Shown here in pieces: positions 3,787 to 5,065 of a DNA stretch of 24,128 nucleotides. The first letter of the stretch is position 1. Every line of letters begins with the position of its first letter. The notes below the pieces were generated by a model that searched no databases, had not been told where the DNA came from, and saw only the letters and a program-made list of their open reading frames with translations. Made by a program: the position numbers and the translations under genes. This DNA comes from a virus (Duplodnaviria; Heunggongvirae; Uroviricota; Caudoviricetes): the IMG/VR virus record IMGVR_UViG_2529293139_000010; one strand, written 5' to 3'.

Positions 3787-3843
3787 AAGATCTAGCATGC
3801 TGCTGAGAACTGATGAGAACAATAAAAGAGTGTTTTTCTAAGG

Positions 3844-3876
3844 TTGACACAACACTCCATTTGAAGTGAATATAAT
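3844..3876 (+). promoter_or_regulatory. Candidate sigma70-type promoter upstream of the RelA/SpoT cargo gene (TTGACA ... TATAAT)
   Basis: Exact TTGACA at 3844-3849 and exact TATAAT at 3871-3876 on the plus strand, about 45 bp upstream of the cargo start. The spacer is 21 nt, longer than the canonical 16-18, so the true -35 may differ. The same 3787-3919 interval must also hold the minus-strand late promoter for V. Confidence 0.3.
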
Positions 3877-3919
3877 GATTACTTAACTGGCAAAAAAACA
3901 TCCTCACTAATTGGAGCCA

Positions 3920-5010
3920 ATGGATACACGCATGTCAGACATTCTAATTACTTATGATGAACGGAAAGATAAATTTGAGTCCTATGCCCTTACTCTTAAA
4001 TCGTTATTAACCACGTTAATTCGCAATGAAAAAATTTCAATTCACTCACTTGAATCAAGAGTTAAAACAAAAAAAGCCTTGAAGGTAAGATTAATAAAAA
4101 GGGAAAATACAAGTCTATAGATGATATTACTGATATCGTTGGTATCAGGATCATCACACATTATGCCGATGATGTTGATAAGATAGCTGCTATAGTTGAA
4201 AAGGAGTTCACCATTGACCAAGAGAACTCTATTGATAAAAGAACCTCAATTGCGCCTGATAAATTTGGTTACCTATCACTTCATTATATAGTAACTTTAA
4301 ACTCAACCAGAACAAACTTAAAAGAATATGAAGTATATAAAAACATCAAAGCCGAATTACAAATACGATCAATCCTTCAGCATGCCTGGGCGGAGATTGA
4401 ACACGACATTGGTTATAAGTCGGCCACAGGACTGCCTAATGAAATAAGAAGATACTTTTCACGCTTAGCTGGTCTTTTAGAAATGGCCGATGATGAATTT
4501 ATTAAAATCAGAAAAAAGATTTCTGAACGGCAGAAAGAGGTTGCAAAAGAACTAGAGCAAGGAACTAGTGATTCAGTTTTAGATATTTTCACTTTGGATG
4601 AATTCTTAAACACAAGTCGAGTTATGAGTGAACTTTCAGAAGAGATAAAAGAAAAAACAGGAATCACAGTACATGGCCGATACAAGGATAAAGATTTGGG
4701 ATACCTACTAAATGGTTTAAACCTAGCCAACATAACTACAATAGAACAACTCAATCAAAAACTCTCACAAATGAAAAAGCAGATAGTAGATAGAATATTC
4801 TGCTTCGGAGAACCATTTATTAATTATTACAGAGAAACCACCATGCCAAAAGAAGCTCTTTTGAGTTATTTATGTCAAATTATCGTTGCGTTTCAAAACT
4901 CACCTTCGTTAGAATCTGAATTTAATAACAAAGCAGGTTTAAATCTGAAAAACAGAGATATCTCCGATTTTTTCTCGAATATAAGAGAAAACATAAGCAC
5001 ACAACCTTAG
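3920..5010 (+). CDS. RelA/SpoT-domain (small alarmone synthetase-like, fused toxSAS / CapRel-like) protein; reading frame interrupted by a -1 shift at an A7 tract (4069-4075)
   Basis: Track ORF 3911..4120 (+) ends RVKTKKALKVRLIKRENTSL*; shifting -1 after the A7 run gives ...KTKKSLEGKINKKGKYKSIDDITDIVGIRIITHYADD...FGYLSLHYIV...[22 protein letters not shown], the signature order of RelA/SpoT synthetase motifs (G-loop D-x-x-G-x-R-I, GY-S-L-H, QIR-x-x-x-QHAWAE-x-EH), continuous with track ORF 4483..5010. The catalytic frame has a TAA at 4063-4065 and no upstream start of its own. About 160 aa of C-terminal extension follow the synthetase core, with no separate antitoxin ORF. Region is visibly AT-rich. 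Confidence 0.7.
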
Positions 5011-5039
5011 CTTTAGTTTTAACGTATTCTAACAGAAGA

Positions 5040-5065
5040 CTGCTGCCGGTAAGCACCGGCAGCAG
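5040..5065. terminator. Perfect 11-bp-stem hairpin between convergent cargo gene and S (CTGCTGCCGGT-AAGC-ACCGGCAGCAG)
   Basis: Inverted repeat read directly: 5040-5050 is the reverse complement of 5055-5065, with a 4-nt loop. No clean U-run on either side, so terminator function is inferred from position at the end of the late O..S operon and of the cargo gene. Confidence 0.35.

Follow-up and report, generated by a model that had tools for sequence, protein, structure and literature searches.

The stretch of DNA analyzed here (the window, 24,128 nt of a virus of the class Caudoviricetes; IMG/VR record IMGVR_UViG_2529293139_000010) carries, between the V and S genes of a P2-like prophage, an AT-rich island with a single frameshifted gene for a stand-alone RelA/SpoT synthetase followed by a C-terminal domain (3932..5010, plus strand). 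One added A restores the 359-aa protein WP_053286928.1. This protein could be an uncharacterized abortive-infection alarmone synthetase in which sensor and effector are combined in one polypeptide, carried as P2-like cargo in antisense and flanked by the S terminator and the promoter pV, and we give this interpretation about an even chance (approximately 0.5). The intact protein would serve the lysogen, with the C-terminal domain holding the enzyme quiet until a cue arrives from an infecting phage. The activated enzyme would then move pyrophosphate from ATP to a purine nucleotide, yielding (pp)pGpp and/or (pp)pApp or, less likely, to the CCA end of tRNA; growth of the infected cell would halt and the infection would abort.

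The island is delimited both by composition and by comparison with related phages. The GC content is 0.31-0.37 over approximately 3750-5100 vs. approximately 0.57 in the flanks. Homology with Wphi, in which the site is empty, ends at 3788 and restarts at 5068, and homology with P2 ends at 3786 and restarts at 5089. An AT-rich insert between V and S, at the position of P2 orf30, had been noticed in a preliminary description of this DNA; the GC contrast and the P2 comparison agree with it, but the limits proposed at that time (3823-5040) were too narrow, and the comparisons place the island (unstranded) at 3789..5067, i.e., 1.28 kb between gpV and gpS. The left flank is gpV, the baseplate spike, with which the late V operon begins (3151..3786, minus strand); its counterpart in locus L021, where the RSH gene is 97% identical, was matched by the Phage_base_V and Phage_spike domains. 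The right flank is gpS, the tail completion protein, with which the preceding late operon ends (5091..5543, minus strand). The host element of the island is a P2-like prophage, and only one credible gene was found in the island by inspection of the open reading frames. The distribution is patchy: 14 of the 5426 complete Escherichia coli genomes are carriers, and 14 of the 1553 genomes having the same V-S junction possess the island. Among the INPHARED phage genomes no record with the island and no close homologue of the protein were found, the best identity being 30%.

The gene orf30 of P2 lies in this slot as well and is likewise opposite in orientation, with the S terminator on one side and the activator site of pV on the other, and its GC content (0.34) is similar to that of the island. 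As in P2-type cargo, the insert described here is AT-rich, lies between the S-side terminator and the pV activator site and is missing from many relatives. However, the P2 Orf30 protein (261 aa) is not related to the synthetase, as no similarity was detected by BLAST; judged by reading its sequence, it may be a membrane protein.

Regulatory elements were located on both sides of the gene. The perfect hairpin described earlier between the cargo gene and S (CTGCTGCCGGT-AAGC-ACCGGCAGCAG, 5040..5065, unstranded; 11-bp stem and 4-nt loop) held up when folded against shuffled sequences, with free energies of -22.8 kcal/mol on the plus strand and -23.7 kcal/mol on the minus strand and none of 200 shuffles folding equally well. 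It is terminator-like on the minus strand, right after gpS, and a rho-independent terminator is annotated at the corresponding position of P2; on the plus strand the stem lacks a trailing T-run. On the other side, the probable activator (Ogr) site of the late promoter pV lies at 3828..3855 on the minus strand, and its TGTTGT precedes the ATG of gpV by 68 nt. In P2 and Klebsiella the same motif is likewise at -68, in P2 within the binding site annotated for the activator, and the Serratia motif is at -69. A candidate promoter of the cargo gene (3844..3876, plus strand) consists of TTGACA at 3844-3849 and TATAAT at 3871-3876 with a non-canonical spacing of 21 nt, and it overlaps the pV activator site. 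The gene had been described as divergent from the V operon and sharing its promoter region; a scan of the plus strand with the sigma-70 consensus found no canonical promoter and did not call the TTGACA/TATAAT pair.

Judged by its sequence, the encoded protein is a RelA/SpoT-family synthetase of the small alarmone synthetase class. The synthetase (SYNTH) domain covers aa 1-173 (3932..4449, plus strand, interrupted by the frameshift). It aligns to Pfam RelA_SpoT (PF04607) with an E value of 1.9e-21 and 76.9 bits, above the curated threshold of 27. This was the sole Pfam match in 363 aa, and no HD hydrolase, TGS or ACT domain was found. The catalytic residues R43, K45, K53, D68, G71, R73, G113, Y114, S116, H118, E142, Q144, R146, H158, Y162 and K163 are invariant across 75 homologues and align to the motifs of RelQ; likewise RxKxxxSxxxK, DxxGxR, the G-loop GYxSxH, ExQxR and HxxxYK are all invariant. 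The ordered motifs on which the preliminary description based its family assignment (DIVGIRIIT, FGYLSLHYIV and a third stretch) are present in the translation, as are the catalytic G-loop and its tyrosine (Tyr114), residues whose absence would have spoken against that assignment.

The gene cannot be read as one open reading frame. Frame A, which opens with the ATG at 3932 (or 3920), is closed by a stop at 4120; what follows, as far as the stop codon at 5010, is encoded in a different frame. The ATG at 3932 agrees with the N-terminus MxxILxxYD of the family. The preliminary description had rightly referred to a frame-corrected gene but had not located the lesion, which is now placed at a tract of seven A's (A7) at 4069..4075 on the plus strand. 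Intact alleles have eight A's (A8) at this site, inside the codons of the conserved RxKxxxSxxxK motif (VKTKKS), and the 1-nt deletion splits the gene after codon 48, ahead of all the catalytic motifs except the first. Compared with the intact E6474 allele, the copy differs by the missing A and by one synonymous base at 4167. Intact 359-aa copies are present in 13 of the 5426 complete E. coli genomes. A7 was also found in GCA_000190815.1, SRR24673192 and SRR30896445, plus a separate allele of CP062865. Sequencing error is unlikely to be its only cause, as the shortened tract was encountered in four independent data sets and again in a second allele lineage. A conserved programmed frameshift was also rejected, since only the Escherichia allele has the A tract, which is absent from the orthologues of Klebsiella and Serratia. 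With A7 in two allele lineages and a third copy that lost its start codon through a 41-bp deletion, no fewer than three inactivating lesions of independent origin have been recorded, and such repeated loss is as expected of a costly or toxic gene. The frameshifted copy in the window probably does little, whatever the function of the family, because its gene is broken.

It is quite unlikely, in our estimation, that the A7 allele is leaky. The tract forms the -1 slippery heptamer A_AAA_AAA, at which a slip of the ribosome, or insertion of an A by RNA polymerase, would give the wild-type protein; in that case, dosage or phase would be switched at the tract. Shifted by -1, the codons at A_AAA_AAA-G would be read as T-K-K-S-L-E-G, identical to the intact sequence, and the frameshifted copy has otherwise only one synonymous change; the origin of A7 in at least two allele lineages and its occurrence in four independent data sets could point in the same direction. 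However, neither a strong stimulatory Shine-Dalgarno sequence nor a downstream stem was seen by eye, the tract is not kept in the other genera, and the 41-bp deletion allele indicates that plain loss happens too. Runs of seven or eight A's slip weakly.

The synthetase domain is followed by a long extension, as the preliminary description had stated; approximately 190 aa lie past the Pfam domain and consist of a linker helix of approximately 41 residues and a domain of 145 aa. In the AlphaFold2 model (pLDDT 93 and pTM 0.81 at full length), the linker helix (4438..4560, plus strand) is predicted at residues 174-214 in the P0001 numbering with a pLDDT of 85-94, and its pairwise identity within the family is 0.51. 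The C-terminal domain (aa 215-359; 4573..5007, plus strand), presumably a sensor or regulator, is predicted to be all-helical with nine helices (pLDDT 95, pTM 0.90). No Pfam match was found for it, nor a significant structural match in the PDB with Foldseek, nor a match with an E value <1 in the BFVD structure search; the modeled fold thus appears to be one without a structural relative found in the PDB or BFVD. A word-index search with the domain alone gave no match, and even a 98%-identical protein was missed. When it was searched by phmmer against 1.84 billion representatives, seven matches were obtained. Five covered the region expected and came from two full-length members of the family and three short fragments; the remaining two, both weak, were spread over several stretches of other proteins. 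No other architecture with this domain was clear from that search, in which a single fast-evolving query has little reach.

The two halves of the protein evolve unequally. Pairwise identity in the family is 0.22 for the C-terminal domain vs. 0.58 in the catalytic half; when compared with the E. coli protein, the two are 26-41% and 57-79% identical, respectively. The ratio of synonymous to non-synonymous changes is 2:12 in the C-terminal domain vs. 5:1 in the catalytic half (p 0.007), one of the compared alleles being a pseudogene. By analogy with the sensor of CapRel, the fast change suggests that the C-terminal domain is sensor-like, although it could also result from relaxed constraint instead of positive selection.

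Orthologues with 44-72% identity are present in the same slot and orientation between V and S in prophages of Klebsiella, Serratia, Cronobacter, Citrobacter and Pantoea, and the divergence of the N-terminal half is approximately that of W, V, R and S. The gene is an old, long-standing cargo ('moron') of P2-like phages. The family as a whole occurs in >578 species-level genomes of many phyla. Distant relatives in many phyla stand alone in prophages or adjoin Gabija or McrBC. Among the other copies, some adjoin Abi_C/McrBC/RES or Gabija-like genes, one adjoins the CI/Cro region of a Shewanella prophage and another is within an integrase island. Some of the nearest neighbours matched the models mad2/3/8, AriA, RmrA, PD-Lambda-5_B and Ssp/Dnd, while ordinary housekeeping genes are the neighbours at many of the 80 family loci examined. 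No neighbour family was conserved at more than 6 of these 80 loci, and the earlier remark that a separate antitoxin gene is missing applies not only to the island but also to all 80 loci. An anti-phage role is plausible from this genomic context. No experimental work on the family was found; its PHROG entry, phrog_9640, is annotated as 'unknown function'. A RelA/SpoT gene in P2 is not mentioned in the main texts of Rousset 2022 and Vassallo 2022, nor in those of the 2026 NAR P2/P4 paper and the iLund4u preprint.

The same distribution bears on a role outside defence, in which the gene would be a lysogenic-conversion or physiological alarmone synthetase whose low levels of (p)ppGpp tune host growth, stress tolerance, persistence or the lysis-lysogeny decision of the phage. 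The closest relatives of the enzyme are the housekeeping RelQ and RelP, many family loci lie amid ordinary genes, the family is very widespread and the gene has long been retained in the P2 lineage, all of which would fit such a role. On the other hand, the surroundings of the gene vary from locus to locus and are often mobile or linked to defence, the distribution within E. coli is very patchy, the gene has repeatedly been knocked out, and the excess of non-synonymous changes is limited to the C-terminal domain. The lysines and the arginine that we take to form the allosteric site of RelQ are, by inspection, not conserved in the consensus N-terminal helix, which also counts against it. On balance, a role outside defence is considered unlikely.

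A broader interpretation may be offered tentatively, as a possibility that we hold with less than even confidence: the gene would be the P2 representative of a widespread and uncharacterized immune family, in which a RelQ-like synthetase is gated by a diversifying helical sensor without a known fold relative. It would have co-diverged with the P2-like phages, and the coding A8 tract would repeatedly switch the gene off or down in E. coli. Since the antisense slot is fixed across at least six enterobacterial genera, phage late transcription may silence the gene. Should the repaired protein defend, it would represent a third mode of control for RelA/SpoT-type immune effectors, beside the pseudo-zinc-finger of CapRel and the nucleoid-protein partner of PANGU, and its sensor would have a fold so far undescribed. 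The small S-V slot, neglected compared with the old/tin and Z/fun hotspots, would then be a stable home of defence cargo and not a random insertion site. Moreover, the family is annotated only as 'GTP pyrophosphokinase' in hundreds of species of many phyla, and therefore many genes would be re-labelled. The recurrent knock-outs are natural material from which the cost of such a gene to its carrier could be gauged.

Among the known systems, RelQ and RelP (YjbM/YwaC) of Firmicutes are the relatives of solved structure that come nearest to the catalytic half, by sequence as well as by fold, with E values of 1e-15 to 1e-18, 22-28% identity, all catalytic motifs in common and a Foldseek TM score of 0.77-0.80 over the whole SAS chain. 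These nearest catalytic relatives produce nucleotide alarmones. They are also non-toxic housekeeping enzymes, an observation that acts as a counterweight to a role in defence. However, RelQ and RelP are approximately 210 aa long and end at helix alpha-5, whereas in the island protein the helix is extended to 41 residues and is followed by the 145-aa domain, and the NCBIfam YjbM model gives only 73.7 bits against a cut-off of 320. The setting differs as well, the genes of the island family being mobile, patchy and prophage-borne. The PADLOC candidate PDC-S33, a stand-alone candidate defence protein with a profile of 349 positions, was weakly matched by all 75 family members. Because the match (best E value 6.6e-22) is limited to profile positions 48-237, i.e., the synthetase part, PDC-S33 is regarded on sequence grounds as a sister family distinct from that of the island; no literature on 'PDC-S33' was found.

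CapRel is a prophage-encoded toxSAS that senses capsid protein and pyrophosphorylates tRNA, and its C-terminal domain is a pseudo-zinc-finger with a three-stranded antiparallel sheet plus a helix (PMC9712102). The preliminary description had placed the island protein with CapRel, which the comparisons do not support. The family profile matched CapRel SJ46 (7ZTB/9ERV) only at E values of 0.003-0.004, in the motif region alone, vs. 1e-17 to 1e-18 for RelQ/RelP; phmmer gave 0.21 for CapRel, and Foldseek gave a TM score of 0.36-0.40 with an rmsd of approximately 19 A. There is thus little probability that the protein is a fused toxin-antitoxin of the CapRel type, in which binding of phage capsid protein by the C-terminal domain would free the enzyme to pyrophosphorylate the CCA ends of tRNA. 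In favor of it, conservation includes Tyr114 of the G-loop and the Arg and Lys residues that bind ATP, CapRel is detectable as a distant relative, and the two are alike in joining, within a single polypeptide, an RSH synthetase at the N-terminus to a variable, least conserved C-terminal regulatory part, and in being prophage-borne without a separate antitoxin gene. However, CapRel-SJ46 (PDB 7ZTB) belongs to another RSH subfamily, its beta-sheet pseudo-zinc-finger is unrelated to the helical fold predicted here, and its YXXY neutralization motif was not found in the family consensus or conserved columns, with only NYYRE in the island protein. The conserved adjacent, often overlapping antitoxin gene of the toxSAS modules described as bicistronic (FaRel, FaRel2, PhRel, PhRel2 and CapRel) is missing here too. 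The island protein is probably CapRel-like in logic but not a CapRel.

In layout, as compared with the published description, the protein also resembles GRel/Pag1B of PANGU, i.e., a SYNTH domain, an alpha-helical linker and a C-terminal domain in approximately 350 aa. Pag1B makes pppGpp, does not modify tRNA and is an abortive anti-phage effector; PANGU type I requires an adjacent YejK-like NA37 gene, and the pairs were reported to co-evolve as operons (bioRxiv 10.64898/2026.04.06.716658). A solitary effector of this kind, whose activation in trans would come from a nucleoid-associated protein, e.g., the host YejK, set free when an invading phage degrades the chromosome, is very improbable. 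The similar layout at approximately 355 aa, the presence of YejK in E. coli and the mildly acidic C-terminal domain (pI 5.2, net charge -3 here) would fit, but no YejK-like gene was found within 6 kb at the 80 loci (phmmer with E. coli YejK, all ORFs, E <=0.01), in the island or in the other contexts examined, and the reported co-evolution of PANGU pairs as operons also counts against it. Over the family, the C-terminal domain varies in net charge from -16 to +8, so that it is not consistently acidic and is probably no consistent DNA mimic, and its rapid change is not explained by a host-invariant partner. Moreover, the orthologue in E. coli S88 was classed as divRel, not gRel, in 2011. The island protein shares the layout of GRel/Pag1B but differs from it in the absent partner gene.

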